From the NCBI GenBank assembly GCA_002392765.1, contig DGHT01000045.1, forward strand, positions 1,315-65,314: 64,000 nucleotides of DNA. Direction: 5' to 3'. Positions 17,548 to 42,865 of the stretch are shown here, one piece after another. The translations under genes were made by a program, and so were the position numbers. The stretch comes from Verrucomicrobia bacterium UBA3841 (GTDB lineage: Bacteria > Verrucomicrobiota > Kiritimatiellia > RFP12 > UBA1067). The notes under the pieces were generated by a model. It was not told the DNA's origin. It did not search any database and saw only the letters and a list, made by a program, of their open reading frames with translations. Within the stretch, counting starts at the first letter, position 1; the number at the start of each line of letters is the position of its first letter.

Positions 17548-17555
17548 TTGCGTTT

Positions 17556-18402: not shown

Positions 18403-18481
18403 GGTAGGGCTGGCGTTCCACCGCCAGCCGCCCCACCCGCCGACTCAAGGAGGTGGAGCGTCCCGCCCCACCCGCCGCACC
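18403..18481 (+). repeat. REP-like modular repeat
   Basis: Full H1+H2 unit: GGTAGGGCTGGCGTTCCACCGCCAGCCGCCCCACCCGCCGACTCAAGGAGGTGGAGCGTCCCGCCCCACCCGCCGCACC. Confidence 0.8.
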
Positions 18482-18534
18482 ATGGGGAAAAAGGGATAGA
18501 CGTAGCCATGGCGCCTGCCGTACTCACTGCCGCG

Positions 18535-18654
18535 TCAGAACTCGCGAGTCGACGGGAACATCGCCCCATTTCGTTCTGCCGCAAGATACGGGCAGCCGCC
18601 CATTGGCATGCACAATATCAGGCAGCCAATTATGATCACGATTCTCTTTTTCAC
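18535..18654 (-). pseudogene. truncated paralog of the lipoprotein gene 20425..21090 (signal peptide only)
   Basis: A GTG-start reading gives MKKRIVIIIGCLILCMPMGGCPYLAAERNGAMFPSTREF then a stop. The DNA at 18600-18720 aligns with 21040-21140, including the upstream region. Confidence 0.45.
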
Positions 18655-18818
18655 AGCACAGCCTCCCTATCCAATTCACCAATGGCAAGAACGCGATGCT
18701 CGCGAGGTTTGCCGCTGTGCATAGATTTTCCAACTGCCGGTTATTAGATTAAAGCCAACAGCGGCACCATCAATCCGAACCTATGAAGCGATATCAGATC
18801 TGCCACGATATGTCGCCT

Positions 18819-18906
18819 CTTGCGATTTCCTTCGACGCCTACTTGCGATTTCCTCTGATTCCTACTTGCGATTTCCCCTGATTCCTACTTGCGATTTCCT
18901 CCTATG
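18819..18906 (+). repeat. four tandem 23-bp repeats (CTTGCGATTTCCNCTGATTCCTA)
   Basis: The units start at 18819, 18842, 18865 and 18888. The array ends about 40 nt before the ATPase start codon at 18946. Confidence 0.75.
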
Positions 18907-18945
18907 TTATGCTATAATATTATCAATAAAAATGGAGATAGTACG

Positions 18946-23978: not shown

Positions 23979-24506
23979 TTAACCATTTTTCTGATACACA
24001 CCCATGCCGCCACATTTGCGACACGTTTCCCCCGTTTTATGGAACACTCCTGTCCCATTACAGCGGAAACATATGCCGCTGTATGACCTTGAATAGCCAG
24101 GGAGTATCACACCCCTGCGTCCGCGCCACGAGCCAACAGATTCCCCATCTTCCCCATAATGCTCAAGCTTGTCACAATTCCCGAACAATCCGCAATTCAT
24201 AGTCTTTACAGACTTCTTGACCCGCCCGTGTTCAAACTCCAACTTCTCAACATCGTGCCCCCAGGCATCTTTCTTGATGCTGCCTTTCCCGACTCTTCTT
24301 CCATCCCGATAGACCTTGACATCCGTCCGATCGCCAAAGAAGCCTTGCCCATGCTTATACTCCTTCGTTGTCCCTGTGTCGTAATTGTGGACCACCGTCT
24401 TCTTGTTGCCCCAGAAGTCCCTAGTCCTAGTAATCGTCGTTCCAGACTGCGTCAGATAGTTGAACATCCTTCCGAGCAGTCCTGTCTCGCGTCTTCCATG
24501 TCCCAT
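23979..24506 (-). CDS. protein with C-terminal DnaJ-CR-type zinc finger (paralogous finger to 23690..23962)
   Basis: Start taken at MGHGRRETGLL. The upstream part of the track ORF would run through the AT-rich promoter region. The C-terminus is CFRCNGTGVFHKTGETCRKCGGMG. Confidence 0.5.
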   Translation of the reverse strand: MGHGRRETGLLGRMFNYLTQSGTTITRTRDFWGNKKTVVHNYDTGTTKEYKHGQGFFGDRTDVKVYRDGRRVGKGSIKKDAWGHDVEKLEFEHGRVKKSVKTMNCGLFGNCDKLEHYGEDGESVGSWRGRRGVILPGYSRSYSGICFRCNGTGVFHKTGETCRKCGGMGVYQKNG

Positions 24507-24643
24507 GGCACACACCTTTCTATTTGATCTACCCGATGGCACCCACTCGAGCGCCTCACTATATGTCTGAAATCCACAAACAGCCCTCCTTACCCCATTT
24601 TGACAGCATAATCTATTTATTTTAATATGTATACCTATTGGTA

Positions 24644-24672
24644 TTGACATTTCATATTTAAAATGATACAAT
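24644..24672 (+). promoter_or_regulatory. near-consensus sigma-70 promoter for the RtcR-like gene
   Basis: TTGACA (24644-24649), a 17-nt spacer, then TACAAT (24667-24672). The ATG follows 38 nt downstream. Confidence 0.55.
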
Positions 24673-24709
24673 GCCATCAATTAAAAGTTGAGCAGGAAAG
24701 GACCGCCTA

Positions 24710-26647
24710 ATGGACAGCAAAGGCAGAAAAGTTGTTGTATTCTCTTTTTTCGACGAAACAGAGGACTATCGCGGCATAATCAATGCCGCACTTAGAAAAG
24801 ATTGGGAGAATGAGGTTGACAAGTGGGCAGAGAATAGCTATTCAGGAGAAAGACCCTCAAGAAATAAATATAAGAAAAACAGCACCAAAAAGTTTTCCGA
24901 AACACATAATCCAGAAGAAATTGACAAAACGTACTGGCGGCCATCCACCGCCTTGGCACTCTCATTACGGGAAAGACAAAAAATTACCATAGACGAGTAT
25001 CACCTATTCTATCAACCGAAATTAAAAGATCACGAAAGCGAGCAACTCAATGGTACACACTATATTAAGGATGCAATTGAACGTTTAGTGCCAGGCATTA
25101 AAGTTAATCTTGAGAAAATTGACATAGGCAACGGTCACAATCTCAAGATCGTGTACGAAAACCTCTTTACATACTTTCTGAATTACTTTAATCCATCACA
25201 AGCAGACGCTAACACCACGAACATTCGATATCTAGTCCACGTCACATCTGGTTCACAGGCCGTCCGCATGTGCCTCTTTCTTCTCGCCCAGAACAGATGG
25301 ATACCAGCTGAATGCATTCAACTCTGGACAACAAAAAAGAACGATCCAGTCGGGGAATGCTCAATAACAGCGCTTGGGGCTTCGACCAAAGGGGAAACCA
25401 AGCTCTTGCAGAACGACCCCGAATCCCTTGGCGAAATTATCGAAACAAGAGATAAAGACTACAGCAACACACTTGCATATATTAAGCGGATTGCAGACAA
25501 AACTAATGAACCAATCTTGCTATTGGGCGACACTGGAGTCGGAAAATCCCAAATTGCGAAGTTAATATTCGACCATCGTAAAAAATCCCTTGCAAGCAAA
25601 GATGACTATATATCAAACAAAAACAATGAATGGATTACAAAGGATGGAGCCTTTAAATGGGTTAACTGTAGCGGCCTCGACGACGCTCTTGTAAATGACA
25701 CTCTGTTTGGGCATGTGAAGGGTGGGTACACAGGCGCGACAGAGGACAAAGCTGGGCTAGTAGAACTGGCCTGTGGAGGTGTGTTGTTTCTGGATGAAAT
25801 AGGCAATCTCCCTATCGAAACACAAGGGAAATTGCTTACTCTCATTGACGAGCATAAATTCAACCCCATTGGTGATCGCGGAGCGCCAAAAGAATCTAAA
25901 TTCCTCCTCATCTGCGCTACCAATGAATGGATACCAGATCTAATTGAGAAAGGTAAGTTTCGCCGTGATCTTTTTGAACGTATTCGTACTTGGACATTCC
26001 GCATTCCAAATCTTAAAGAGCGCCCGGACGACATTGACCTTAACATTGACAACCTGTTAAAGATCTTCAGCAGAGACAATGGCACCAATATTCAGTTCAG
26101 CAACGAACTGTCACGCCAAAATTTCCTATCCGCCATAAAAGGCATGACGTTCAATGGTAATTTCAGAGAACTAAGACGGATCATATGGCGTATGGCAACC
26201 ATTGCCACACTTGAAAAACACGTCATTGACGACAGCATAATTCAAGACGAAATCGAAAGACTCAAAAGCGAGCAGGAATGGAATAACAAGTCCTCGTCCA
26301 AGCAAGTGCAGTCACCACCCAAGATAGCATCTATCAACGAAACCTTTGCCGACAAAGTCTTGAATGCCATCCACCAAAAATATGACATCAAATCTAATAT
26401 CAACAACATTGAACTTCATCAACTGCGGCACGTTATTGAGGTTTGTTTACGAAGCAAGACAGGTGCGGCCGCTGCGAGAGAACTGTTTAATGTAAGTTTA
26501 AAAGATAAAGGCAATGGTTTAGGCGCTAAAAGCAATGCCTCCGATTATATGAGCCGTTATTTTAGGCGAAAAGCCATTAGCCAGCTAGGCATCGACTTTG
26601 ACACGATTAAGTCTATCGCAAGGGAGCTCCGCCAAAAAACTACTTGA
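24710..26647 (+). CDS. RtcR-like regulator: CARF-like N-terminal domain, sigma-54-interaction AAA+ domain and C-terminal HTH
   Basis: 645 aa that is collinear with my recollection of E. coli RtcR. The matching blocks are YLVHVTSGSQAVRMCLFLLAQNRWIPAECIQLW, Walker A GDTGVGKS, LFGHVKGGYTGA (a GAFTGA-loop variant, 25721-25738), GGVLFLDEIG, GKFRRDLFERIRTWTFRIPNLKERPDDI and NGNFRELRRIIWRMA. Confidence 0.85.
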   Translation: MDSKGRKVVVFSFFDETEDYRGIINAALRKDWENEVDKWAENSYSGERPSRNKYKKNSTKKFSETHNPEEIDKTYWRPSTALALSLRERQKITIDEYHLFYQPKLKDHESEQLNGTHYIKDAIERLVPGIKVNLEKIDIGNGHNLKIVYENLFTYFLNYFNPSQADANTTNIRYLVHVTSGSQAVRMCLFLLAQNRWIPAECIQLWTTKKNDPVGECSITALGASTKGETKLLQNDPESLGEIIETRDKDYSNTLAYIKRIADKTNEPILLLGDTGVGKSQIAKLIFDHRKKSLASKDDYISNKNNEWITKDGAFKWVNCSGLDDALVNDTLFGHVKGGYTGATEDKAGLVELACGGVLFLDEIGNLPIETQGKLLTLIDEHKFNPIGDRGAPKESKFLLICATNEWIPDLIEKGKFRRDLFERIRTWTFRIPNLKERPDDIDLNIDNLLKIFSRDNGTNIQFSNELSRQNFLSAIKGMTFNGNFRELRRIIWRMATIATLEKHVIDDSIIQDEIERLKSEQEWNNKSSSKQVQSPPKIASINETFADKVLNAIHQKYDIKSNINNIELHQLRHVIEVCLRSKTGAAAARELFNVSLKDKGNGLGAKSNASDYMSRYFRRKAISQLGIDFDTIKSIARELRQKTT

Positions 26648-27311
26648 AGAGTCGCCGCAAAGGAATGCTTCCATTACTCCAAGCAAGACGGGCTGCACCC
26701 AAGTACTTCGAAAATGACGGCAATAGAATTTTCTGATCTTTTTTCGCATTAAGAACCTCTAGAAACTCCGTCTGCGTAATCGGCTTATGCTTTGAAAGAA
26801 ACTCGACCGGGGAGGCTAACTGCTTCATAGCACCAGGCTCCATAAGCCATTCAGCAGTTGCACAATAGGCTTCACGGCGCTGAACAAGCTTCAGTAAAGT
26901 GTTTCTGCCAAGTACACTACGTCCAACATATGTCTCTCCCCCCATCTCTGGCACGTCTATTTCAATCCTACCATCTTCATTTCGAAATACGCGAAGCACA
27001 TATGCGGCATCCGTCAAAAAAGGCCCCGTCTCGAAAACCTCGGACAAAACCGCATCACTTTCGACCGTTAATGCATCTTCATCCGAGAAATCCCACTCCG
27101 CGTCAAACACTTCCTCGGCAAGCTCATCGTCTATTGCCAAATCTTCATATCCAACGGAAATATCCTGGACTATGTGCCCTCGCTGCTCCAGTTCCTGTAA
27201 GTTGCGCTGCACTTCCAGAGGCCCCCCAGAACAAACTATATCGGCCAGAACGTGTAATGCCTGAGTTTGCTTCGTCTGCTGTTCCTGCCCAATACCAAAT
27301 CCGAGGCCCAT
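26640..27311 (-). CDS. truncated sigma-54 (RpoN)-like factor, about 223 aa
   Basis: It has a Gln/Leu-rich Region-I-like N-terminus (GIGQEQQTKQTQALHVLADI...LEVQRNLQELEQ) and an acidic Region-II-like stretch. This is followed by AYVLRVFRNEDGRIEIDV, RNTLLKLVQRREAYCATAEWLMEPGAMK and KPITQTEFLEVLN...LPSFSKYLGAARLAWSNGSIPLRRLF, which resemble the sigma-54 DNA-binding region up to the HTH (..STISRVT..KY..TPRGIFELKYFF). No RpoN box is present. The start at 27311 has an AAGGAGG 9 nt upstream, inside the RNAP gene's end. Confidence 0.6.
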   Translation of the reverse strand: MGLGFGIGQEQQTKQTQALHVLADIVCSGGPLEVQRNLQELEQRGHIVQDISVGYEDLAIDDELAEEVFDAEWDFSDEDALTVESDAVLSEVFETGPFLTDAAYVLRVFRNEDGRIEIDVPEMGGETYVGRSVLGRNTLLKLVQRREAYCATAEWLMEPGAMKQLASPVEFLSKHKPITQTEFLEVLNAKKDQKILLPSFSKYLGAARLAWSNGSIPLRRLFK

Positions 27312-27312
27312 C

Positions 27313-30300
27313 TTAAGCATCCTCCTTTCCGCAAGTCTTTTCGCGATGCCCCCAGCGATTGAACATCACCTTGGCAAATGGTGAATCAAATGACAACACA
27401 CCGTCGCTTATCGCAAGTTCAAATATCTGCCGTTTCTGCCTCTGAAAAAGAATATCCGTAAACGTTTTGTCCGCCGATTTATCAGCTGCCGCACTATTTT
27501 TCGTTGCCTCTCGTTTCTTCTTCAGTGCCTCCCAGAGGATTTCCAGATACTTATCGTCAATTTCCGCATATTCGGTCTCTTCATTATCCCCATTTTTTCT
27601 AATTGCATTTATAAAACCGACCTTATCGTCATCCCTAACATAATCTCTATGTTCAGGACTCCCCTTCTCCCCAACTTCCCCGGTTAAGAACAACGCACGG
27701 GATCGCGCGATGTCGATTCCCTTCCCACCTGTATGGAACCCCTGCATCGCGACCTGAAGTCCCCTTTCGCCTATTGCCTGCGCCGCGATAAGACCTTCTT
27801 GCCCTTTCGGCCAGAGCATAAACACAAGGCGACGCGTAAGATCGCCGGCCTTACCTGCACCAAGCTTCTTATTGCACATAGTGGTGCGAGCATTTAACGA
27901 CGACCAGAACATTTCGTCCCACGACATCCCATGCACGAGCGAACAATCGAACTTCTTGGCCTTATCCGGGATTAGGTCTTTTGAGTACCCCAAATGATCC
28001 ATGTCCACATGCAACTCGCCTCGCGAACCTATTAATTGGCGTATTTGGCTTTGACCGTTTGCACCCGACCTGACCATGTCCAAAACTGACTTCTCTCCGG
28101 CAGACAGATCGGACGCTCCACGCACTTTGTCGAGAATGCCTTGCTCCTCCATCTTCCCAACTCGCGAACTAAGGTCTAATAAATCATAGAACCCAAAGGA
28201 CACGCCTTGGCGTGTACATGCATGATAAGCAAGACGGGCGAGAGCAGCAATCGCCTTTGCCGACTTCTCACCATTCTCCTCGGACAACTCATCAATAAGT
28301 TTCTTGCCGAACTCGCCAGGCTTATCAAACTTCTCCTCAAATAGCTTGCGAATCCCGTCATCCAGATTAATCTCGTCAATCTCTTTCTTATACTTCACCT
28401 GGTTCTCATAGACAATCTGCAGCCCAGTCACAAAATCGCGGTCATACTGCGCCGAAGCTTTTCCCGTACCTATCATACGAAGATTATTGCGCGGTAGCAT
28501 TACAACAGCCTCTTTCTGGGCCTCGTCAGATACAGGATAGTGTCCAACCATCTCGTCACCATCGAAGTCGGCGGCAAAACCCTTGCAGCAGAGCGGCGAT
28601 ATCTGCAGCACTTCGCCGTCTTCGGGCTTCAATGGCTCAGGGTAAAACGCCTGAAAGCCATGACGATGAAGTGTTGGCTGACGATTGAGCAAAATCAACT
28701 GCGGATGTTCATTCAAATAGTCGCGAAGCAACTTATACTTCTCGTCATCTGTAAGCGAAGAAGCGGCCTTATTCCACCACCATCCAACGCGCAGTACAAT
28801 TTCGGAGTCATTCGATCCAGACACTACCGTTTCTGAGTCTGCAGGATTGCTTGTTTCAGCCCCCATAAACGAAGCTAATACTCTGTCTCCCATCAATTCC
28901 CACAGGACATCTGTCGGTACGCGGACCTTATCCCATTCCAATTCGGGATTTGGCGTAATGACCAATCGGAATGAACGATCAACGCGACGCCCCAGTCCTT
29001 CGCGACGCAACAATCCATCCTTTTTGTCAAGACGATTAGCGATTTCCACGAACAGCTCTTTGACCGCTGTCTTAACACCGGCCAAGCACTTCTCTTTATC
29101 TTTAACTCCACATGCCCTAACAAGTTTGCGGTAGAGGTTATTAATCTCGGCGCAGCTTGCCGCATTGTCGGATATTTCCGGGATCGGCCGTCGATAGCGA
29201 ATCGGGAGAACTGGTATAATTGTTAGTTTGGGCAGTTCCTGTCCCAACGACCTCAAATCTTTTGCAGATATGCCAAAAGCATCGTATGGATAATCAACTG
29301 GCTCTGGAAGTTTAACATATCCCCACTTATCATCGCAAAGTTCCGGCTTTCTCCAATCACCAAATATCACTTCGTCAAATATACTGCCCGGATTGGCTTT
29401 ATAATAACACCCGTATGGAGGCGTCGCTTTCAGAGAGATTGTCGCGTGGTGAGGACATGTGACAGAGAAGTCTCCCAGCGCCGGACCCTCTTTCTCTCCA
29501 CATAACGAACTAAGAAGATCTTTAGCGGATCTGTTAAGCGGTTTGCCAGCCACCTTCCCCTTGCTAAACCTCCCGTAACAGGTCATCGTTTCCATACCAA
29601 CCGGCCATTTAGGAGGTTGCATTCCAGGCTTAGGAACAATCTCAGCCTTTATCCAGTCTTTCTGCGGGTCATAGTCTTTTAGCGTCACAACAAGAGTACA
29701 TTTGGGAGCGCCCTCAACCGGAGTTAAATCCCACTCAAAGACCGCAGGTCCCATGCCTTGACCTGGCATCGGATGAATAGGCTTTGTGCAATCATACCCC
29801 CAGCTGCGCAAAACACTCTTAACTCTGAGCGCATTGGTGTTTTTGTTGTCACCACTACCTTTTGGCAGCTTCTCATTGCCAAACGGCATCCCACATCCTT
29901 TGGGACAGACAAACGAAGCTGTTGGCTCCTTTGAAACACCACCGGCAGACAACACACGCTGCGCACCATTGTCTTCAATCCATTCCCTGATCGTCTCTTC
30001 TGACATTAACGAGAATCGAACCTTGTCTGCCCCTGCCTGCTCCATATCAATCCCAAGCGCCCAAAGCCAATCTCGCGCAACTCGCGGGAATCCAGAAAAC
30101 AGCTCCTTTACAGGCGGGGCTCCTTCAGCTTTCCATTCGCTCGCCCATTCAACGTCGGACTTCGCGCCCAGCATCTCTTCAAGAATATGCGGCACGCCGT
30201 ATGCAGCAAGCGCCCACACCTCCATCTCCCCCAGTCTCTGCCCGCCGCCAATTCGACGTCCATGCGCAGCCTGCCGAGTGGTAGACGAATATTTTGCATC

Positions 30301-32460
30301 CGAACCACCACATCGTGCCTGCGCTTTAAACTCTGGCACATGATGAAGCCGGACAAAGTACTCAAACCCAACGAGTACAGGGCTCTCCGTCTTCGACCCA
30401 TCTGGCAACACCAATTGGATGCATCCCTTCCGGTCTAGCCCACTTGCCTCAAGGGCGTGGCGAATTGCATCATGGTCAAGATTCGCGTTGTCGAAGCAAC
30501 CAAGTTCAGGCGACACTCCGCCACTTTTCAAGAAGTTAGCCCCATTCCACCCCGCATGAAGCAGCCAACCAAGATGCGTTTCCAGAAGCTGGCCAGGGTT
30601 CATCCTAGATAGCACACCATGTGGGTTAAGCAGAACATCTATGGCTTTGCCACGCAGATTCGCTGGCAACCGAGGATCATCGGGGAGGTGCGGCATTTCT
30701 TCTTCATCAAGAACCCTCGCGACCACCCCCTTGTTACCATGCCGCCCCATCAACTTGTCACCGAGACCAAGCGGCACCTCTTTCTCTAGTTCAAATGACA
30801 AACGCTGAGACAACTCTTGCAATGCTTCAGAATCTTCACACCCTTCATTAGGCGGAAAGAATGGTCCTTTGGAAATCCGGGCAGGATTCGGGTCCTCATA
30901 TCGCAAGACAAGCTTTTTCTTGTCACCATTGGCAAAAGATATGACAACATCTCCTTGCTTTAGAGGTGTGCAATTGTCAATCCTTTTCCAGAACGGGACC
31001 CATTCCGGGCTAATTTCGTGCGAAAACCACTTGCGCTCCGCAATCGCCATTTTTTCTGCGACTTTCCGACTGACAACAATCGCATCATCCACATTCCATC
31101 CATTCCACGACATATAGGCCACAAGAAGATCGCACCCGAGCGCAAGATCACCCTTCTCATCGATGGTGTTTGGACAGATGCCTATGTCTGTAAGCCGACA
31201 CATCTTTTCGACAAGTTCGCGCTCCGCGCCAGTCTTTACAAGCGGTGCGCAGCGTCCTGAGACGAGTGTTGCCTGCCGAAGGTTCTTTGCACCCAGCATA
31301 TTCCTGGCGTCGTCATTATGTTGCGCAAAGGGAATCATAGAAACTCCCCAGCCCACGCTCCCCATAGCTCCACCATGCTGCTCCATTGCCCCCTCAGCCA
31401 TGACAATCTCGCCATTTGCAGTGACACGAGCATGCCGAGCCAGTTGCAATGAGATGCCAATCATTTCGGATTCAGGTGTCTCAATCGGACAAATCCGGCC
31501 ACGGAACGACGGATGATTCTGCCGAAAATCCAATGGGAAACAAAGCACATTGGTTCGCTTGACATGGTAGCGCTTTATACCGGTGATGCTTGCCATCAGC
31601 TCCAGTGCGTTGTTCGGTTGGACAGGGGTGACAAAACCACCTCGCTTCAGCCCATTCAACGGCACCAAGCAATCGGGAACATATTTGGCCACTTCTTCTG
31701 AAAAGAAATCATCCCCATCCTTGTGTTTCGCGAACAATTTACAAAGTCGAAAAGCAAGCCAGCGCGGGAATGAAACAACAACACGATGCGCAAGATCATC
31801 CTGATCAACAGGCTGCATCAATTCACCTGCATGTTCGCGCACAGCATCAATCACATCCTTTGCCTTGCCGTTCAAAGCCTCCTTTAACCATTCGGGGATG
31901 AGCTCTTTGCTATCCTGTGCCCCACCCCACAATGGACCGAACGGCATGTCATCCATCAACTTCTGCAGACGCTTACAAACGTTATCTGACGGTTCATCCC
32001 ACAGCAAAGACCCTTTTGGTCCGTCCGGAAGTTTCACACTAAACTGCACACACGAAGCATCTGGGAATCCTATTCTCAATTCAACCTCTTTTTCAACCTC
32101 TCGCCTCGTTTTTCCGGCAGGATACACGAACCTAATGCCGGGCTTTTCGGCAAGCCATGAATTCCATACAAGTGACTGCGCATGTTTATCAGAAGCGCCT
32201 ATAAAGACTCCGTCTATGGGAAAAGGTAGCTTCTCAATTCTAAGTACATTTTTGGGATTGCAATTCGACCTGATCTCGATTTCACCGCACAACGTTCGGT
32301 TGTTGTTCCAACACTTCTCTGCCAGCCTTTCAGAAGGAAGTCGCAAACAGGCAGAGACATCCTGCCTCAATATCCGAGAAAGAACCTCCGAAACAGCATC
32401 GTTCCATTCTTTCGCGGTTTCAGGATCAAACATTAGCCAATTAGTTTTTCTGTCTTCCAT
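27313..32460 (-). CDS. single-polypeptide fusion of multisubunit RNA polymerase beta-like and beta'-like moieties (minimal, 1715 aa)
   Basis: Beta motifs are FRGRICPIETPESEMIG (aa 319-335), IPFAQHNDDARNMLGAKNLRQA, VAYMSWNGWNVDDAIVVS, GDKLMGRHGNKGVV (GRHGNKG at 30727-30747), IDVLLNPHGVLSRMNPGQLLETHLG and QRLGEMEVWALAAYG. Beta' motifs are GRRVDRSFRLVITPNP, LLNRQPTLHRHGFQAF, PLCCKGFAADFDGDEM (AADFDGD at 28555-28575), SQIRQLIGSRG, the bridge-helix-like GDLTRRLV and AAQAIGERGLQVAMQGFHTGG. Confidence 0.9.
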   Translation of the reverse strand: MEDRKTNWLMFDPETAKEWNDAVSEVLSRILRQDVSACLRLPSERLAEKCWNNNRTLCGEIEIRSNCNPKNVLRIEKLPFPIDGVFIGASDKHAQSLVWNSWLAEKPGIRFVYPAGKTRREVEKEVELRIGFPDASCVQFSVKLPDGPKGSLLWDEPSDNVCKRLQKLMDDMPFGPLWGGAQDSKELIPEWLKEALNGKAKDVIDAVREHAGELMQPVDQDDLAHRVVVSFPRWLAFRLCKLFAKHKDGDDFFSEEVAKYVPDCLVPLNGLKRGGFVTPVQPNNALELMASITGIKRYHVKRTNVLCFPLDFRQNHPSFRGRICPIETPESEMIGISLQLARHARVTANGEIVMAEGAMEQHGGAMGSVGWGVSMIPFAQHNDDARNMLGAKNLRQATLVSGRCAPLVKTGAERELVEKMCRLTDIGICPNTIDEKGDLALGCDLLVAYMSWNGWNVDDAIVVSRKVAEKMAIAERKWFSHEISPEWVPFWKRIDNCTPLKQGDVVISFANGDKKKLVLRYEDPNPARISKGPFFPPNEGCEDSEALQELSQRLSFELEKEVPLGLGDKLMGRHGNKGVVARVLDEEEMPHLPDDPRLPANLRGKAIDVLLNPHGVLSRMNPGQLLETHLGWLLHAGWNGANFLKSGGVSPELGCFDNANLDHDAIRHALEASGLDRKGCIQLVLPDGSKTESPVLVGFEYFVRLHHVPEFKAQARCGGSDAKYSSTTRQAAHGRRIGGGQRLGEMEVWALAAYGVPHILEEMLGAKSDVEWASEWKAEGAPPVKELFSGFPRVARDWLWALGIDMEQAGADKVRFSLMSEETIREWIEDNGAQRVLSAGGVSKEPTASFVCPKGCGMPFGNEKLPKGSGDNKNTNALRVKSVLRSWGYDCTKPIHPMPGQGMGPAVFEWDLTPVEGAPKCTLVVTLKDYDPQKDWIKAEIVPKPGMQPPKWPVGMETMTCYGRFSKGKVAGKPLNRSAKDLLSSLCGEKEGPALGDFSVTCPHHATISLKATPPYGCYYKANPGSIFDEVIFGDWRKPELCDDKWGYVKLPEPVDYPYDAFGISAKDLRSLGQELPKLTIIPVLPIRYRRPIPEISDNAASCAEINNLYRKLVRACGVKDKEKCLAGVKTAVKELFVEIANRLDKKDGLLRREGLGRRVDRSFRLVITPNPELEWDKVRVPTDVLWELMGDRVLASFMGAETSNPADSETVVSGSNDSEIVLRVGWWWNKAASSLTDDEKYKLLRDYLNEHPQLILLNRQPTLHRHGFQAFYPEPLKPEDGEVLQISPLCCKGFAADFDGDEMVGHYPVSDEAQKEAVVMLPRNNLRMIGTGKASAQYDRDFVTGLQIVYENQVKYKKEIDEINLDDGIRKLFEEKFDKPGEFGKKLIDELSEENGEKSAKAIAALARLAYHACTRQGVSFGFYDLLDLSSRVGKMEEQGILDKVRGASDLSAGEKSVLDMVRSGANGQSQIRQLIGSRGELHVDMDHLGYSKDLIPDKAKKFDCSLVHGMSWDEMFWSSLNARTTMCNKKLGAGKAGDLTRRLVFMLWPKGQEGLIAAQAIGERGLQVAMQGFHTGGKGIDIARSRALFLTGEVGEKGSPEHRDYVRDDDKVGFINAIRKNGDNEETEYAEIDDKYLEILWEALKKKREATKNSAAADKSADKTFTDILFQRQKRQIFELAISDGVLSFDSPFAKVMFNRWGHREKTCGKEDA

Positions 32461-32473
32461 AACACATCAAACT

Positions 32474-34468
32474 TCATTCAAGACTCAACATCTTCTTAGC
32501 AATTTCTATCTGCCCTTCTGCAAATACAGAAAACACATCATACGTTTGAACGGTATTTACATTTGCACACACATGTCCAACACACTGGGAAGCAACGTCT
32601 TCCCCGCCAAGTAGACCATTTCTCGAGAAAGTCATATGTGCATTTCTCATCAACGGGTTTACTCTTGCTCTTAGAGAATCCGTCCATGGTGGACCATTCT
32701 GTTCCACTTCATCAGGATTAAATTCTATCGCCGCAGCCCCATCCTTTGGGCCAGAATAAATCAGCCAACTCTGATTCGGTAGTTTATCATTAAACCACAC
32801 GCCATCACGATATTTATCTCGCTTCTCTACGTCATTTGTGTCAAGATACGGGCAAGATTTTGCATCCAAAACAATCCAATACTGACTTTCTGGAGAATTA
32901 TCACTATAAAACACAATTGCATAATCAGGAGTCAACAGATAGCGAGACGTAAAACCTCTTATGTTAGAATTCTGGTCTTGATATGCTCTAATGCCGCCGT
33001 ATAATTCCACCCTCAATGGACAATCTCTCTGTTTTAGTTTTGCACAGATTGGGCCATTGAATGTTGGTCCAAGATGAATATTCTTGATGCATTGCACGAC
33101 TTGCCTTGCATAGTTAGTCCCAAGATCTTCAAGTCCCTCATTCATAAATGCTTGGACAAGACGCTTAAACACCCATGCCTCATATATAAACGAGTAGTTC
33201 TTTTGCCAAGTTGAACATTCGCCATCATCCAAATCGCGCACATGCTTGGGTAAACGAAAACAACCATTCAAACGGCCCTTAAAGTCTCGCAATTTCAAGA
33301 AGTCCATCATTAATTTATGTGTACGGTTATATGCTTCAGTATTAGGAATGTCAACAGTTGCGAGGTAATCAATGGAACCGGAAACAACGCCTATGCACTG
33401 CATCCATGGACATCCTTCCGTGAAGAAAGGTTGACACTGCCCAACAATCTCCCTCACTTTATCAATCAAAGACCGTTTGAATTCAATTTCTTTCTTTATA
33501 TCCTTAAGAAGGAATTTATCGATATCCGGAACCTTGCTCAACCAATCTTCATCTGCCGATATACTATCTTTTATTTTGTGTATCAAATCAACCACGCAGT
33601 TCTTAAAATACAACAGGAATCCTTTTATTGCCCTATGTATCGGCACATCGTATGACATTGACAACACTGGAGCATAAACCTTTCCATGAGATATTCCCAA
33701 CGACAATCTGCGATTCATATCACGTCTTGTCTTCGATGATATCTTACGTAGTTTCTCCTGGGGAGTCCTCTGATAAGATCTCACAACACCCCCCGCACAT
33801 CTACTTGCAATGTCTAAAAGATATGGCTTCAATGAACTTATCAAACCTTTAAACTCGAGAATTTGCCTCTCTACATCCCTAAGAATGCTCGCCGTCTCGG
33901 AAGAAAAACATTCCTCTTTTATGTTTGTCCTTGAAAGCCCCTCAAATGTAGAAAGAACCGCAGAAGGATTCACACCAATCATCTCATCAACCATACGATC
34001 CAACAACTGCTTCTTGTCAGGATTCGGCTCTACCTTAATGTCAAACTCTGCAATAGTAACCCATTCAAAGTTTTCTGTCATGTTAGCGCGACGACGTAGC
34101 CGCAGCATTGACGGCCCAGAAGCACCACGCAACATCTGCATTCTAAAAACATGAACTTTGTTACCTTTATTATCCTTTCCCCATGTAAAGAACCGCCCTC
34201 CCGAGTCTGTCTGTGGTTCATAATCTGGTCGATACGCAAGTTGTAATTGATATAAAGAATCCAAGTCTTCATTGGGGGCAATCTTTTCAAGTCTCGCCTC
34301 CAAAAACAGAAGGTCACTAACAGCACCTTTGACGCCCCACGCACCTTCGCTAAAGTGAATAAGATTTCGAATGCTGCCCACCACCCCATCGCCAAGAGGA
34401 AGCGATGGTGTTTCAACGAAAGACTCCTTGGAATCTTTATCCTTATAAAAGAAAATCTTAAGATCCAT
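32474..34468 (-). CDS. McrC/DUF2357-like protein with C-terminal PD-(D/E)xK nuclease motif
   Basis: 664 aa. FIYEAWVFKRLVQ is followed by LLTPDYAIVF ... WIVLDAKS (D515, D535-x-K537; 32858-32929). It is immediately downstream (7 nt) of the McrB-like gene. Confidence 0.65.
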   Translation of the reverse strand: MDLKIFFYKDKDSKESFVETPSLPLGDGVVGSIRNLIHFSEGAWGVKGAVSDLLFLEARLEKIAPNEDLDSLYQLQLAYRPDYEPQTDSGGRFFTWGKDNKGNKVHVFRMQMLRGASGPSMLRLRRRANMTENFEWVTIAEFDIKVEPNPDKKQLLDRMVDEMIGVNPSAVLSTFEGLSRTNIKEECFSSETASILRDVERQILEFKGLISSLKPYLLDIASRCAGGVVRSYQRTPQEKLRKISSKTRRDMNRRLSLGISHGKVYAPVLSMSYDVPIHRAIKGFLLYFKNCVVDLIHKIKDSISADEDWLSKVPDIDKFLLKDIKKEIEFKRSLIDKVREIVGQCQPFFTEGCPWMQCIGVVSGSIDYLATVDIPNTEAYNRTHKLMMDFLKLRDFKGRLNGCFRLPKHVRDLDDGECSTWQKNYSFIYEAWVFKRLVQAFMNEGLEDLGTNYARQVVQCIKNIHLGPTFNGPICAKLKQRDCPLRVELYGGIRAYQDQNSNIRGFTSRYLLTPDYAIVFYSDNSPESQYWIVLDAKSCPYLDTNDVEKRDKYRDGVWFNDKLPNQSWLIYSGPKDGAAAIEFNPDEVEQNGPPWTDSLRARVNPLMRNAHMTFSRNGLLGGEDVASQCVGHVCANVNTVQTYDVFSVFAEGQIEIAKKMLSLE

Positions 34469-34475
34469 ACGCTAA

Positions 34476-36479
34476 TTATACTTGCATGATTCTTTTAGTG
34501 TAGTCATCTATTCGCCTTTTCAAGAGCTCCGCAGAAAGTGGTAACTTGAGAACATCCGAGTTTACATTCTGATCGCCCTTGCCACTCACCTCAATTTCAA
34601 ATCCTTTGTTAACGTTATCGTAAAGTGTATTAATAGCAGTTATCGTCCCTGGTGTGGGTCTGCATGCAAAAAACACCCTTTGCGCGAGAAATTCATCCAG
34701 CGCGACTTTCTGTCGCTCGGCTTCAGTAAGGAATGAATTATTTCCTTCATATGGAGGCCTGTTCCGAATATATGTAAACATATCTGAGACAATACGCCCG
34801 CTCATATCGAACCCTGCGTCTGACATAATGCTTTCATTCCCATCCTTAGGTCCTAGAAGAGACAAAATGGCGTTAACAATTATATTGTCAATGTCGCGAG
34901 ACGACTCACACCAACGCTTAAAGGTCCCATATGTGATTGGTTCTCGGCCGACGAAAGGCTTTATTTCAGGGGCATTTCCATCTGCAAGATCCGTCACAAG
35001 CTTCTTCGTAGTTTCAAAAGAACTTGCTAGTTCAATGGTGTTGCAGCGACTTAAAAAACGCGGACTCAATGGGCGTGTTGTTTCGTCCGAATTACATGTA
35101 CCGATCACGCGGAAGTTTTGCTCCACAAACAAGTCCATGCCATTATCCTTACACCCAGGAATCACCCCCATTCCTCGACTCATGATTTGGATAAAATCAG
35201 AGAAGTAATGCTCAACACATGCAAGATTCATTTCTTCAAAACAGACAATGCCCATCGGCAAGTTCTCACCTTCAGATATATTCCTTATGAATTCTGCCAA
35301 GTGACTCGGCGCATGCCGAAAACCACCGTCTGTCTCATAGCCAAGTAGATCCGCAGGTTCCATCCATGCCGGGTTAACAAAAATCTGCCGCCACGACCGC
35401 TCGGCCGGCGGCCGCTCGGCGTCATTCTTTGCGGGCGAACCAGCAACAGCCCTCATATACAATTCTGCCAATGAAGATTTACCTGTGCCGGGGTTACCCG
35501 CTAACAGCGTACACATCGAACACTTGACGCTTGTGTGTAGTCTTACTAGATCGGCCGTGCTATACTTGAAGCCGCACCTTTTGACATATTGCTCAAAACT
35601 TTTCAAAAAAGATATCTCTGTCTCATCCCATTTATCGTCATCCTTGTTGCCTGCACTTTCATGTGACGAATTCTTTCCTGTCAAGCCAGCCGTATCAGAA
35701 GTGGCATCACCAGTCGCTTGTGGCCGGCCAGATATTGCTCTTTCTACGCTATCGCCAACATTGGCACCTATCATGCCGCCTCCACTCAACGGCTCGTCAT
35801 CTTCTGCCTCTGCCCCACGTTCACAACCATCATCGACGGGCAACTTTCGCCAAATGTTTTCATCCGCAAGAAGATCGTCGGTAGTCACATTTTTGAACGG
35901 ATTCACTAACACAAATTGGTCACCATTAAACTTGATCTCCTTACGACGATCGTCATTGCTGAAGAAATAAAACGTCTGCTTCAGGGTCTTCTCCTCATGA
36001 TCCGGCAACCGATCTTCACGAACACCTTCTCCAACTTGAACACGGCCCGTCTCACGATCATAAGTAAATCCTGAATAAAACTTGTTTTCATCTGAAATGA
36101 TAACGTCTCGCGTCCATATTTTATACTTTGGACATAGCCCTTTTGCTGAATTATTTCGGATGAAATCATCCAACGAGGTAGTCTTTGACTCCTCAAATTC
36201 TTCCCATTTCCTCATCTGCACAGGGCGTTTTGCGTTTGCAAATAGGAGTGTCTTTCCATTTTTTACTGTGCACACCGCAAACTCATCACAGACGCAATAT
36301 GGCTTTTCCCCTGAATCAACATGTATTTCACGATCGCCAAGAGGATTGCCAGCTGCATCTACTGCGCTTTTCAATATATGCTTTCGAACTGCGCCTGTCG
36401 CATCACGATCGCGATCATCGTATATCCCATAAATAAAGTCGTCCTTCTTGACATTCCTATTGTAGTGTTTTGGTGCCAT
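34476..36479 (-). CDS. McrB-like AAA+ (AAA_5) NTPase with large unknown N-terminal domain
   Basis: Start taken at MAPKHYNRNV, preceded by AAGGAGAG. Walker A is LLAGNPGTGKS (35475-35498). Walker B plus the McrB-type segment is IVCFEEMNLACVEHYFSDFIQIM, followed by VIGTCNSDETTRPLSPRFLSRCNTIEL. Confidence 0.75.
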   Translation of the reverse strand: MAPKHYNRNVKKDDFIYGIYDDRDRDATGAVRKHILKSAVDAAGNPLGDREIHVDSGEKPYCVCDEFAVCTVKNGKTLLFANAKRPVQMRKWEEFEESKTTSLDDFIRNNSAKGLCPKYKIWTRDVIISDENKFYSGFTYDRETGRVQVGEGVREDRLPDHEEKTLKQTFYFFSNDDRRKEIKFNGDQFVLVNPFKNVTTDDLLADENIWRKLPVDDGCERGAEAEDDEPLSGGGMIGANVGDSVERAISGRPQATGDATSDTAGLTGKNSSHESAGNKDDDKWDETEISFLKSFEQYVKRCGFKYSTADLVRLHTSVKCSMCTLLAGNPGTGKSSLAELYMRAVAGSPAKNDAERPPAERSWRQIFVNPAWMEPADLLGYETDGGFRHAPSHLAEFIRNISEGENLPMGIVCFEEMNLACVEHYFSDFIQIMSRGMGVIPGCKDNGMDLFVEQNFRVIGTCNSDETTRPLSPRFLSRCNTIELASSFETTKKLVTDLADGNAPEIKPFVGREPITYGTFKRWCESSRDIDNIIVNAILSLLGPKDGNESIMSDAGFDMSGRIVSDMFTYIRNRPPYEGNNSFLTEAERQKVALDEFLAQRVFFACRPTPGTITAINTLYDNVNKGFEIEVSGKGDQNVNSDVLKLPLSAELLKRRIDDYTKRIMQV

Positions 36480-36495
36480 CGTACTCTCCTTATTT

Positions 36496-36672
36496 TTAAA
36501 TTCCAACCTCTTGCTGAGCTTGCAGTCTCCGATCCAAGTCCAATTGCATATAATCCACCGCTACAGAACGAAGCCCCATAAAATCATATCCAAGATCATC
36601 AAGAAACATTTTCGCTACAAAATAATTGGCATCAACTAATGCGTTGAAATACCTGTACTTATTCTCTTCCAT
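36496..36672 (-). CDS. 58-aa acidic helical protein, first gene of the island operon (not in ORF track)
   Basis: My own translation is MEENKYRYFNALVDANYFVAKMFLDDLGYDFMGLRSVAVDYMQLDLDRRLQAQQEVGI. A strong SD (GAGGAGGAGGCTCTACAATG) precedes it. Its composition is AT-rich like the island. Confidence 0.4.
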   Translation of the reverse strand: MEENKYRYFNALVDANYFVAKMFLDDLGYDFMGLRSVAVDYMQLDLDRRLQAQQEVGI

Positions 36673-36736
36673 TGTAGAGCCTCCTCCTCAGCGCCACAAA
36701 CCTATCCGATCGGAATCGTGCCACTGTTCCCCTCTT

Positions 36737-36934
36737 TCATTCCAAGCCTTCAAGCGCCTTCAGTACCGCTTTGATGTCTGAAAGGGTATACCGGCCCGGC
36801 GTAAAGACCACCTTGTCGCCGACGACTTTCCACCGCGGTGAAGGCTTTTTCGCGCCAAGGCGCTTCTTCGCCGCTGAAGTCTTCGTCTTCGGGGTCTCAA
36901 CATGTTTCTGCGCCTTAGATGACATTCGTTTCAT
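36737..36934 (-). CDS. small basic hypothetical protein
   Basis: High-GC ORF reading MKRMSSKAQKHVETPKTKTSAAKKRLGAKKPSPRWKVVGDKVVF... I recognise no motif, and the start is uncertain. Confidence 0.3.
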   Translation of the reverse strand: MKRMSSKAQKHVETPKTKTSAAKKRLGAKKPSPRWKVVGDKVVFTPGRYTLSDIKAVLKALEGLE

Positions 36935-36997
36935 GCTATTGCCCACCTTACCTTCCCTTTGCACCGTGTTCCACTGCAGACGGCACGCTCGGTGATC

Positions 36998-37272
36998 GCG
37001 CCCTACCGTTCCCCGCGCAGGAAATCTGTTTGTACATATTATACCACAAAAATGGAAAATGCGGCGGAATTTTTCCCGTTCACAACGACGAGGGCGTCGT
37101 CGCTACGCAGGACATCTGTCAGCTATCTCCAACTTTGCAACATTGCCAAAATCAGGTCTGCGGCACGAAAATTCCCGCGAGAGATCCCCGCCCGCAGGCC
37201 TGCCCGGGCTCTCTCAGCCGGGTTTACGCCTAGTGGCATTACAGTATACGGGAGAGCGGCGGGAATCTGACA
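36998..37272 (+). repeat. composite repeat A+B+C (left end of the cassette-like stretch)
   Basis: A (36998-37065) recurs at 41079-41145. B+C (37089-37272) recurs at 39466-39649 with one mismatch. C (37235-37272, GGCATTACAGTATACGGGAGAGCGGCGGGAATCTGACA) recurs four times in total. Confidence 0.85.
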
Positions 37273-37343
37273 ACGAGAGCGATGAGGATAGCGACATTCA
37301 TTTGAACCGGAACGATACACGCGCGTAAATTGCGAACGCGCCC

Positions 37344-38309
37344 TTGCTATTATTCCGCAAATATGGTATCATGTGCGGCATGGACGGAAGCGATATACTA
37401 TATCTATCGAGCGAAGATACGGCGAAACGGTGGGAAATATCCGACCGGAGAGTGCGCGTTTTATGCGAGAACGGGCAGATTCCCGGCGCTATACGCGATG
37501 GGAATCTGTGGAAAATCCCCGCCCCTGCCGTGAAACCGCGCGACGGGCGGACGATGCGCGGCCTCGGAATTCCCGTCGCCTTGCGCGGAACTATCGCCGA
37601 AATCGATTCGCTCAAAGAACAACTCGCAGCCAAGCGCCCATTGACGGACGGCGAGCGCGAACGGTTGCGCGATGCGTTTCTTGTCGATTACACCTACTCG
37701 TCGAACGCCATCGAGGGCAACACGCTCACGCTCAGCGAAACAGCGATGGTGCTTTCGGGTATGACAATTGGCGAAAAGCCGCTTCGCGACCATCTTGAAG
37801 CGACTGGACACCGGGACGCCTTTTGCTTCCTGGAAGATTTCGTGAAATCCGGCGAGGCGATTGGCGAAGCCTTCATCCGCCAGCTCCATTCGCTCGTCCT
37901 TGCAGACAAGCCGATGGACAAGGGCGTCTATCGCCGCATCCCCGTCATTATTACCGGAGCCGTCCATACGCCGCCGCAACCTTACATGGTCGCGCCGATG
38001 ATGGAAGAATGGGTGCGGGACTTGCGCGCTACGCGGCACCACCCGATTGTCGCCGCAGCGGAATTTCACATTCGCTTCGAGGCCATCCATCCGTTCATCG
38101 ACGGCAACGGAAGAACAGGGAGGCTTTTGGCAAACTTCATCTTGATGCAGTCAGGCTATATGCCGGTCAGCGTCAAATACGAAGACCGCCGGGCCTACTA
38201 CGACGCCTTCACCGCCTATCATAAAGACGGCGACATCGCGCCCATGCTTGGAATATTCGCCGAGCGTGAACGGCAACGCCTGTTGGATTGTCTCGCTGCA
38301 ATAGGCTGA
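37344..38309 (+). CDS. Fic-family protein (AMPylase-type Fic/DOC domain)
   Basis: It carries the Fic motif HPFIDGNGRTGRLL. There is an N-terminal HTH-like segment. The start codon is uncertain (alternative ATGs at 37371 and 37380). Confidence 0.85.
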   Translation: MLLFRKYGIMCGMDGSDILYLSSEDTAKRWEISDRRVRVLCENGQIPGAIRDGNLWKIPAPAVKPRDGRTMRGLGIPVALRGTIAEIDSLKEQLAAKRPLTDGERERLRDAFLVDYTYSSNAIEGNTLTLSETAMVLSGMTIGEKPLRDHLEATGHRDAFCFLEDFVKSGEAIGEAFIRQLHSLVLADKPMDKGVYRRIPVIITGAVHTPPQPYMVAPMMEEWVRDLRATRHHPIVAAAEFHIRFEAIHPFIDGNGRTGRLLANFILMQSGYMPVSVKYEDRRAYYDAFTAYHKDGDIAPMLGIFAERERQRLLDCLAAIG

Positions 38310-38483
38310 AAAACGCCTGCATGCTTTAGTTGCTGTCAGTTCCTTTATTACCGTAATATGTCGGATGATGGGATAGGGACTCGATTTCCTGCACCGCAAT
38401 TCGGCTGTAGCCCGCCGCTCTCGCACTTGACAAATGTAGCCCACAAATGCTACAATACGCTCATCATTTCTTGGAGGCAATCA

Positions 38484-38816
38484 ATGCAAGCTACGCGAAC
38501 CGACACAGTCAGAGCAAGAATATCTCCCGAGTTGAAGAACTCGGTTGAAGGGATATTCTCGTCGCTCGGCATGAATTCATCACAGGCGATAGTCCTGTTT
38601 TTCAAACAAGTCGAATTGCATAACGGGCTTCCGTTCGACGTGACTTTGCCGCCAAAGAAAATCCCCAACATGGCCACGATGTCCGACGAAGAGGTTGATG
38701 CCGCTCTTCAGGCGGGCATCGATGAAATTGACGCGGGCAAGTGCGTTCCGCTGAACAGGGCTTATGCCGGATTTCGCAGGAGACACGCAAAATGGGCGAC
38801 TATGGCATCGAAATAA
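38484..38816 (+). CDS. RelB/DinJ-family antitoxin
   Basis: The start MQATRTDTVRARISPELKNSVEGIFSSLGMNSSQAIVLFFKQV is preceded by GGAGG. This is a ribbon-helix-helix DinJ-like N-terminus. Confidence 0.75.
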   Translation: MQATRTDTVRARISPELKNSVEGIFSSLGMNSSQAIVLFFKQVELHNGLPFDVTLPPKKIPNMATMSDEEVDAALQAGIDEIDAGKCVPLNRAYAGFRRRHAKWATMASK

Positions 38817-42600: not shown

Positions 42601-42865
42601 GCCGACAATTATACCATTTGCCAAACGGATTATCAAGTATCAACTTACGAAATTTTTCGTTACGAGAAACTTCGTAATGCGAGGCGGCTTCCGCCAATTT
42701 TACATTTTACACTTTACATTTTACACTATTCCCCGGCGGTTTTGTTGTCAGATTCGGGGAATGGCGCCGTATATGACGCCAGAATGGACAGCGGTTCGTC
42801 CTTTCGCGCACGAGCGACATCGAACTGCGGTTGCAGGAATCGGTTCTCCGCGCCATTCTGGACAT

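Follow-up and report, generated by a model that had tools for sequence, protein, structure and literature searches.

A candidate self-contained transcription module of a minimised β::β′ RNA polymerase, a sigma-54-derived factor and an RtcR-like activator in a Verrucomicrobiota bacterium

Introduction

In canonical sigma-54 systems, a bacterial enhancer-binding protein (bEBP) touches Region I of sigma-54 through its L1 loop, GAFTGA, which is nearly invariant in ordinary bEBPs. One RNA polymerase (RNAP) core is taught for bacteria. The reduced SPbeta enzyme YonO has been reported to work without a sigma factor, and we know of no RNAP of a selfish element that has been reported together with a sigma-54-like factor or an AAA+ enhancer-binding protein. 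Reduced enzymes with two double-psi β-barrels that lie outside the core genome include YonO, the Rpb2::Rpb1 fusion Orf6 of the yeast killer plasmid pGKL2, NCgl1702 of C. glutamicum and the RNAPs of jumbo and crAss-like phages (PMC2919709). RtcR-like regulators have been described near restriction systems, with no polymerase noted (Makarova et al., 2014; PMC4012209). This study describes a locus of Verrucomicrobia bacterium UBA3841 (contig DGHT01000045.1) in which the genes for a fused β::β′ RNAP, a miniature sigma-54-like factor and an RtcR-like bEBP lie side by side. A second, minimised bacterial β::β′ enzyme with its own factor and its own activator would come as a surprise.

The analysis covered a stretch of 64,000 nt, which is referred to as the window; all coordinates are counted within it, and loci named L followed by a number are related loci elsewhere. 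A sequence-only reading of the window had proposed that the island supplies its own sigma-54-type pathway. Homology and linkage bear out the three parts of that pathway, whereas its role and its target are put forward below only as proposals. We consider it rather probable that the locus is a self-contained, portable transcription module, known from sequence alone, composed of a minimal RNAP, a mini sigma-54-derived factor and a sensor bEBP. The families of the RNAP and of the factor have gone unnoticed under names such as 'hypothetical' or generic RNAP subunits, and none of Pfam, NCBIfam, PHROGs and PADLOC contains them. No earlier description of the module was found in these four libraries or in the full-text literature, the coverage of which is incomplete, and the module is probably new.

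Results and discussion

A single-chain β::β′ polymerase

By homology, the 1715-aa protein is a true minimised β::β′ fusion RNAP with both catalytic barrels, for which RNA synthesis activity is predicted. Pfam detected Rpb2_3, Rpb2_6 (E = 3.3e-41), Rpb2_7 (5.6e-11), Rpb1_2 (1.5e-21) and Rpb1_5 in the order β then β′, in agreement with NCBIfam, and HHalign aligned residues 278-810 to E. coli β 513-1341 and residues 1079-1581 to E. coli β′ 239-941, with a probability of 100% for both subunits and an identity of 29-31%. The fusion annotated in the sequence-only reading is thus upheld, as is its numbering of the catalytic aspartates: D1298, D1300 and D1302 of the metal-binding motif AADFDGDEM are columns of the family alignment that are invariant in 32 members.

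The HHalign gap map indicates which parts of the canonical enzyme have been retained. Both double-psi barrels and the clamp coiled-coil are present, and the bridge helix (β′ 751-806) and the first helix of the trigger loop (β′ 911-941) align. Undetectable in the same map are β 1-512 (the lobes), β 851-969 (the flap region), β′ 1-238, β′ 657-711 (the secondary-channel rim), β′ 807-910 and everything past β′ 941, including SI3 and the jaw. Residues 1-277, the Cys-rich segment 811-1078 and residues 1582-1715 of the fused protein have no detectable relatives.

The architecture is not confined to the window. A word-indexed search of 5.8 billion clusters returned approximately 78 cluster representatives of 1,500-1,900 aa with the same architecture, clearly separate from the full-length housekeeping rpoBC fusions of 2,200-2,900 aa. 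Nearly all of them are metagenomic and called 'hypothetical', and the named hosts are Kiritimatiellae or Verrucomicrobiota. No member was found in 50,697 phage records or 72,556 plasmid records. Among 185,579 species genomes there are at least two to three true members, from a scan keyed on generic motifs (GNKGV and DFDGDEM) that returned mostly archaeal RNAPs and is not a census.

A miniature sigma-54-derived factor

The gene that follows the RNAP gene encodes a 223-aa protein. It opens with a Gln-rich helix, which corresponds to a degenerate Region I, and continues through an acidic linker and a β hairpin into an ELH-HTH module. Neither this protein nor six syntenic orthologues matched Pfam, NCBIfam, PHROG or PADLOC, and family profiles run against PDB sequences matched only acidic low-complexity stretches. 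An exhaustive HMMER search gathered 164 sigma-like representatives at 50% identity, all of 220-360 aa, without ever reaching full-length sigma-54.

Five independent lines of profile and model evidence nevertheless converge on a remote homology between the factor and the ELH-HTH module of sigma-54. An AlphaFold2 (AF2) model reached a predicted local distance difference test (pLDDT) score of approximately 90 for residues 103-226, and the 14 best PDB matches of this model in Foldseek were all sigma-54 chains, with probabilities mostly of 0.82-0.96. HHalign of a 119-member factor alignment against a nine-species sigma-54 alignment gave 88.6% (P = 2.6e-6) over E. coli sigma-54 325-426, compared with P = 0.34 for a reversed control; against a single sigma-54 sequence the value was only 21%. 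The nine-species alignment was built from plasmid-borne rpoN genes and anchored on the E. coli sequence verified against PDB entry 9mse. A sigma-54 hidden Markov model (HMM) found 42 weak co-linear matches on the ELH-HTH segment among family members versus one in the reversed control, and Sigma54_DBD is the Pfam family matched by most members of the factor family, although by only four of 119 and weakly. A distant 396-aa counterpart at L019, a metagenome-assembled genome of Desulfobacteraceae, matches Sigma54_DBD (E = 0.063), and its segment TPLWGVVPLSTFF matches the sigma-54 HMM, where it is aligned with TPRGIFELKYFF. For Region I, residues 1-21 of the orthologue P0127 are identical to E. coli sigma-54 1-21 at 11 of 21 positions (E = 0.002 in a single comparison).

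The remaining parts of sigma-54 were not recovered. In HHalign, Region I, the core-binding domain (CBD) and the RpoN box (-24 recognition) of sigma-54 all went without a signal in the factor; Sigma54_CBD was likewise undetected by Pfam and the HMM. An acidic linker of approximately 50 residues takes the place of the CBD, for which the protein is too short. The factor ends right after the HTH equivalent (...GSIPLRRLFK), and the ARRTVAKYR-like motif of the RpoN box is missing; long-form relatives carry an unassigned C-terminal extension. Since no CBD or RpoN box is detectable, the protein should be called sigma-54-derived rather than assigned to the RpoN family. The label 'sigma-54-like' in the sequence-only reading holds for the ELH-HTH module, as judged by HHalign, Foldseek and HMM, but not for the CBD and RpoN box, and Region I of the factor is degenerate. 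On the canonical core, sigma factors dock in part on the flap region, and we infer that the loss of the CBD from the factor and of the β flap from the polymerase are connected.

A 'hypothetical protein' on a plasmid of Paracoccus pantotrophus (L015 412-1548; NZ_CP058691.1) is a very divergent homologue of sigma-54 with approximately 25% identity to E. coli RpoN that keeps a canonical RpoN box, and a similar protein is present in P. versutus.

An RtcR-like enhancer-binding protein

The bEBP comprises a CARF domain, an AAA+ Sigma54_activat domain, a lid and a C-terminal HTH region. It matched RtcR (1.2e-16) and Sigma54_activat (3.5e-41) in Pfam, RtcR--CARF_AAA_HTH in PADLOC (2.4e-101, residues 73-623) and RNA_repair_RtcR in NCBIfam (8.6e-103), the last with 345 bits and hence below the equivalog cutoff of 650 bits. 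BLASTP aligned it to residues 27-521 of E. coli RtcR at 33% identity (E = 8e-78). The regulator had been called RtcR-like from its letters, and all four comparisons concur; the resemblance extends over the whole protein.

The Walker motifs, the arginine fingers and an aromatic L1 loop are retained. The loop reads GGYTGA in the window, with the aromatic residue and the Thr kept and the flanking positions varied; in nine RNAP-linked bEBPs the other versions are GAYTGA, GSFTGA, GAFTGA, GAYTGG (twice), GAYTDG, GSFSDG and GAASGI. This variation, at a position where ordinary bEBPs are nearly invariant, fits co-evolution with a private partner. The linked bEBPs also differ in their sensory parts, as some carry an RtcR/CARF domain and others are bare AAA+ proteins or carry REC domains.

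The three genes travel together

Approximately 45 related loci were assembled from 12 exact-protein contig look-ups, two loci of a genome collection and a metagenome motif scan, and were scored with home-built HMMs. The scan used the motif QNHPSFxGR[IL]CP, which is specific to this RNAP family; canonical β has RDVHPTHYGRVCP in its place. The sigma-like gene lies directly 3′ of the RNAP gene in all 15 loci of the first set with downstream DNA and in 12 of 14 loci of the metagenome set, the two exceptions having broken RNAP open reading frames (ORFs). A bEBP gene is present in 13 of 15 loci of the first set and in seven of the ten metagenome loci with enough flank, which amounts to approximately 80% overall. 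It is found in three arrangements: convergent with the sigma-like gene in the clade of the window, co-directional and downstream in the long-sigma clade, and upstream in L101 and L112. Because the linkage survives these changes of gene order across RNAP identities of 29-85%, it is strong evidence that the RNAP, the sigma-like factor and the bEBP work together. The absence of conserved linkage had been named at the outset as grounds for abandoning the proposal, and the three genes are linked across distant relatives.

At L130 (1307-7060) an RNAP frame of 1186 aa is followed by a separate 499-aa ORF and no sigma-like gene was found by HMM; the copy may be split or decayed, unless the assembly is at fault. 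In the long-sigma clade, whose factors have approximately 330-350 aa, the RNAP is repeatedly accompanied by REC-HD-CE proteins, some of which are joined to, or lie next to, a nucleoside hydrolase (L098 4275-9974, L017 7086-9836 and L007 6140-9947); L098 also carries a second bEBP, of the REC type.

Locus organization

The positions of the genes and of the proposed control elements are listed in Table 1. The six-frame ORF list reproduced every gene coordinate of the sequence-only reading, together with the 8-nt overlap of the 3′ ends of the converging bEBP and sigma-like genes and the short gaps in the minus-strand operon, which are 16, 7, 13 and about 1 nt. The absence of rtcA and rtcB was confirmed in the window by tblastn with the E. 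coli proteins (best E = 0.87 and 3.7, respectively), and the same search found no canonical sigma-54 gene. The 58-aa ORF, which had been taken for the first gene of the operon, did not hold up in this place: it has no homologue at any related locus, is missing from the alignment with L001 and is unique to the window, while the 75-aa ORF upstream of it has homologues in the corresponding place in L001 and L102. The operon therefore starts with the 75-aa gene, and its order is 75 aa, (58 aa), McrB-like, nuclease, RNAP and sigma-like. The GC content of the locus is 0.42-0.50 versus approximately 0.62 in the outer window.

Table 1. Genes and candidate control elements of the locus, with positions in the window.
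Feature	Position	Strand	Remarks
RtcR-like bEBP gene, 645 aa	24710-26647	+	six-frame ORF list
Sigma-54-like gene, 223 aa	26640-27311 (27320 with upstream ATG)	-	ORF list
Fused RNAP gene, 1715 aa	27313-32460	-	ORF list
PD-DxK partner gene, 664 aa	32474-34468	-	ORF list
McrB-like AAA_5 gene, 667 aa	34476-36479	-	ORF list; ATG preceded by AAGGAG ribosome-binding site
58-aa ORF	36496-36672	-	plausible ribosome-binding site; status uncertain
Basic 75-aa ORF	36737-36964	-	conserved operon-head gene in the sub-clade of the window
175-aa ORF divergent from bEBP gene	23979-24506	-	C-terminal CxxCxGxG zinc-finger pair
Sigma-70-type promoter of bEBP gene	24644-24672	+	TTGACA, 17 nt, TACAAT, extended TG; 11 of 12 matches
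Sigma-70-like operon promoter candidate	37243-37273	-	TTGTCA, 19 nt, TATACT; conserved with L001; conserved leader follows
Conserved element GTTTGTGGATTTCAG, consensus GTTT-N2-3-GGRTTTCAK	24567-24581	-	bEBP-divergent intergenic region; points to divergent gene
Toxin-antitoxin/defence-like flanking gene(s)	37344-38816	+	library domain matches
Toxin-antitoxin/defence-like flanking gene(s)	41473-42636	-	library domain matches
Toxin-antitoxin/defence-like flanking gene(s)	15087-20163	+	library domain matches

The McrB-like NTPase and its PD-DxK partner

The AAA+ protein upstream of the polymerase matched AAA_5 in Pfam (7.4e-7) and the candidate family PDC-M26A in PADLOC (1.6e-16), and HHalign aligned it to E. 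coli McrB 197-371 with 96.3% probability (E = 1.9e-9), placing its CNSDE on the NTAD motif, so that the McrB-like assignment stands. Its residues 1-330 have no match in any profile library. The 664-aa partner, which stands where McrC would be expected and had been read as a McrC/DUF2357-like PD-DxK protein, carries a C-terminal PD...DxK signature (P514, D515, D535 and K537) that is invariant in seven homologues with identities of 17-31%, one close copy excepted. This part of the assignment stands, whereas homology to McrC was not demonstrable (HHalign 3% against E. coli McrC). DUF2357 and PDDEXK_7 are the domain pair typical of McrC-type partners, and both were matched below threshold, the former with E = 0.23 and the latter with E = 0.012 in two homologues. 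A PDB profile search with the partner returned coiled-coil noise, PADLOC gave no match, and a single-sequence AF2 model with a pLDDT of 33.7 was not used for a fold search.

The pair occurs in seven loci only: the window, L001, L102, L111, L112, L113 and L118. All five genes are co-directional in L112, in the order bEBP, McrB-like, nuclease, RNAP and sigma-like. By this distribution the pair is a clade-specific addition that lies outside the conserved module. The polymerase had been described as welded to a restriction-like module; the genes are indeed co-operonic here, although the arrangement is confined to one sub-clade.

The comparison of the window with L001 reveals a mosaic. The RNAPs are 85% identical, the bEBPs 76% and the sigma-like factors 66%, compared with only 33% for the McrB-like NTPases, 33% for the 75-aa proteins and 24% for the nuclease partners. 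The McrB-like/nuclease pair diverges far faster than the core genes, and the pattern indicates either diversifying selection or cassette exchange, both of which are typical of conflict genes.

Promoters and a candidate target

Both transcription units are preceded by sigma-70-like promoters that are conserved in L001, and host RNAP therefore probably makes the components of the module. The reverse complement of the bEBP promoter is conserved in a four-locus intergenic alignment. The leader behind the operon promoter was considered as a structured RNA and rejected, as it belongs to no Rfam family and has a folding z-score of -0.79.

The canonical sigma-54 promoter (TGGCAC-N5-TTGC) is not enriched in the window, with 25 matches versus 24 expected, and none is present at the locus. 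Two matches with one mismatch in the locus (24506 and 26949) were judged to be due to chance; the one that is also conserved in L001 falls within a highly conserved part of the sigma-like coding region. An exact TGGCAC at 36718-36723 on the minus strand, approximately 45 nt 5′ of the 58-aa ORF, has no -12 TTGC partner and is probably also due to chance.

These results bear on the view that the bEBP is an ordinary activator of host sigma-54, while the RNAP and the small protein do other work, such as synthesis without a template or on RNA templates, priming, or service as a sensor that tracks along DNA and is coupled to the McrB-like/nuclease pair. RtcR-like CARF-AAA+-HTH regulators do occur outside rtc operons near restriction systems, where they are thought to act via sigma-54 (PMC4012209), the small protein lacks a CBD and an RpoN box, the RNAP is co-transcribed with an McrB-like motor and a nuclease, and some RNAP/sigma-like loci have no bEBP. 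We nevertheless hold this view to be unlikely, since canonical promoters are neither present at the locus nor enriched around it, the L1 loops depart from the near-invariant GAFTGA, and the factor keeps exactly the sigma-54 module through which bEBPs act, together with a remnant of Region I. Moreover, the bEBP stays with the RNAP/sigma-like pair through all three gene orders and the whole range of RNAP identity, and the McrB-like pair is missing from most family loci. For the private module that we favour, we infer the target of the bEBP to be the private factor and not host sigma-54.

Every bEBP gene of the RtcR clade has a divergent neighbour, and the intervening region contains a conserved element that is not explained by the bEBP promoter and whose relative position is shared by the window, L001, L102, L002 and L118. 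It reads GCTGTTTGTGGATTTCAG in the window and L001, CCGTTTTGGGGGATTTCAT in L102, CATGTTTTTGGGTTTCAG in L002 and GCGTTTCGGGATTTCATAG in L118. It occurs once in the 64 kb of the window, where 0.01 occurrences would be due to chance, and lies 60 nt upstream of the 175-aa zinc-finger ORF. We propose the element as a candidate promoter of the private polymerase that is -12-like and has no -24 partner, which fits a factor without an RpoN box. The 175-aa ORF, which has a homologous N-terminus in L001 and no Pfam match, is the candidate first target gene.

The genes that occupy this divergent position vary. In L102 (12996-), L002 (8068-) and L118 the first of them opens with an S1-like sequence (MK..KF.VGD.FVA.VK.V...G..I.MP), in the place where the window and L001 have the small CxxCxGxG zinc-finger protein. 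The cluster divergent from the bEBP gene in L002 (10044-14918) encodes a WXG100 protein together with an FtsK/SpoIIIE ATPase, which as a pair resemble type VII secretion.

A proposed mechanism

On present evidence the module would be one for enhancer-dependent transcription by a non-canonical minimal RNAP, as read from its components and their linkage. All of its parts would be made constitutively by host sigma-70 RNAP from the two promoters of Table 1. The factor, which appears to keep the ELH-HTH used in promoter melting and -12 recognition together with a remnant of the activator-contacting Region I, would retain the private polymerase as a closed complex on the private promoter, for which the conserved element is the candidate. 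This promoter would face the genes divergent from the bEBP gene, as rtcR faces rtcBA. The CARF domain would bind a ligand, which by analogy with RtcR may signal RNA damage or be of the cyclic-phosphate type. The bEBP hexamer, with ATP and its GxYTGx L1 loop, would then remodel the factor and so fire a small and variable local regulon, with private-polymerase transcripts expected to start approximately 10-15 nt downstream of GGATTTCA. The identities of the private promoter and of the CARF ligand, and the biological role, are conjectural in this scheme.

Genomic setting and possible roles

The module lies in a low-GC stretch of the window (approximately 13-45 kb) that also contains HTH_17+Fic/DOC, a RelB-like antitoxin, a STAND/AAA_16 NTPase and three AAA_14+DUF4143 ATPase genes. 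Elsewhere, L100 (1-9119) carries a type III-B (Cmr) CRISPR-Cas system with Cas6, Cas2 and a reverse transcriptase-Cas1 fusion directly upstream of the triad, and L006 has NUDIX, PARG and ResIII genes beside the module. Taken together, the setting leans towards conflict or defence, but it is not uniform. For the sub-clade of the window, the co-transcription of the RNAP with the fast-diversifying McrB-like/nuclease pair and the defence- and toxin-antitoxin-rich island point to a conflict role directed against mobile elements. A more specific version, in which an orthogonal cassette expresses island cargo (nucleases, toxins and secretion genes) on a danger signal even when host RNAP has been shut off or hijacked by a phage, so that transcription itself would form a layer of immune effectors, is a possibility that we regard as doubtful.

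The most divergent triad, with 29% RNAP identity, has a different setting. It lies on the 17.6-kb contig L101, recovered identically from four samples, together with a tyrosine integrase, an excisionase-like HTH_17 protein and an AEP-TOTE primase, and L101 is likely to be an integrative mobile element. A VirD4/TraG-type coupling protein is encoded near the module in L003. These two loci, the low GC content of the region and the minimal fused RNAPs known from plasmids and prophages (PMC2919709) would all suit the view that the module is the transcription apparatus, or the apparatus for transcription-primed replication, of a mobile element, whose genes it would express independently of the host, with no role in defence. 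Such an origin carries a low probability in our judgement: the proteins of the window include no integrase, replication or capsid genes, and a tRNA search of the window found none; most loci lack mobile hallmarks and have differing flanks that look chromosomal; and the phage and plasmid records searched above hold no family member. The window, L001 and L102 have the same M16-peptidase flank, which suggests vertical residence.

The module might instead be a stress paralogue unconnected with mobile elements or defence, serving as a reserve or dedicated polymerase for a small set of housekeeping or stress genes, such as those of RNA-damage repair. The RtcR homology of the bEBP ties it to RNA-damage signalling, the S1-like openings of the divergent genes in L102, L002 and L118 suggest RNA binding, and several loci lie among metabolic genes. 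This we consider very improbable, given how rare and patchy the family is among the clusters and species genomes searched, its low GC content and highly variable cargo, and the fast divergence of the co-operonic nuclease pair among defence and toxin-antitoxin neighbours.

Several observations count against the private module itself. The sigma-54 homology of the factor is remote, with no Pfam or PDB sequence match, and its Foldseek matches have E-values of only about 0.02 and low TM-scores; the window's own copy has a 12-residue deletion in Region I, and the Region I signal is not significant at the family level (six HMM matches). With no detectable CBD and RpoN box in the factor and no β flap in the polymerase, the mutual binding of the two proteins is left unexplained. 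Approximately 20% of loci have no nearby bEBP (L097, L099, L108 and L119). The conserved intergenic element is missing from L005, L006 and the long-sigma clade, and it could equally be a binding site for the activator or an element of the 5′ untranslated region. A role in defence is guilt by association, and many loci sit among ordinary metabolic genes (L003 and L097).

If the module works as proposed, it would provide a natural minimal model of enhancer-dependent initiation, with a core of approximately 1,700 aa and a 223-aa factor, and without flap, CBD or RpoN box, from which the required contacts could be learned. It would also offer an orthogonal, ligand-gated expression system for synthetic biology, and it would point to a possible logic of genome conflict in which the expression of effectors is insulated from the host polymerase.

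A further gene of the window lies outside these subjects: at 45360-47471 on the minus strand, a 703-aa protein combines shikimate kinase, EPSP synthase and the N-domain of shikimate dehydrogenase, an AROM-like fusion in a bacterium.

Comparison with known systems

The McrB-like/nuclease pair resembles McrBC in that the AAA_5 NTPase is homologous to the GTPase domain of McrB, including an NTAD-like motif, and is directly followed by a PD-DxK partner. It differs from McrBC in that the partner has no detectable McrC homology and is twice the size of McrC, the NTPase has a different N-terminus of 330 aa, the pair is co-operonic with an RNA polymerase, and PADLOC recognizes only PDC-M26A.

In Helicobacter, Wolbachia and other reduced genomes, rpoBC fusions likewise combine β and β′ in one polypeptide in the same order. 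They are, however, full-size housekeeping enzymes of approximately 2,500-2,900 aa with all of the Pfam RNAP domains, whereas the RNAP of the module is an accessory enzyme of 1715 aa from which the β lobes, flap, rim helices, SI3 and jaw are missing. It shares its drastic reduction with the RNAPs of selfish elements (pGKL2 Orf6, YonO, NCgl1702 and those of phages), some of which are also single-chain β-β′ fusions, although these are far more divergent from bacterial β/β′ than the module RNAP, whose relationship to both E. coli subunits is plain in HHalign.

The module differs from the sigma-54/bEBP system represented by RtcR and rtcBA in bringing a polymerase and a factor of its own; the factor of the module has 223 aa compared with approximately 477 aa for sigma-54 and is without CBD and RpoN box, the locus has neither rtcA/rtcB nor a canonical -24/-12 promoter, and the L1 loop of its activator is GGYTGA instead of GAFTGA. 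Nevertheless, the activator has the architecture of RtcR, its gene is divergent from the presumed targets as rtcR is from rtcBA, and the factor shares with sigma-54 the ELH-HTH module and a trace of Region I.

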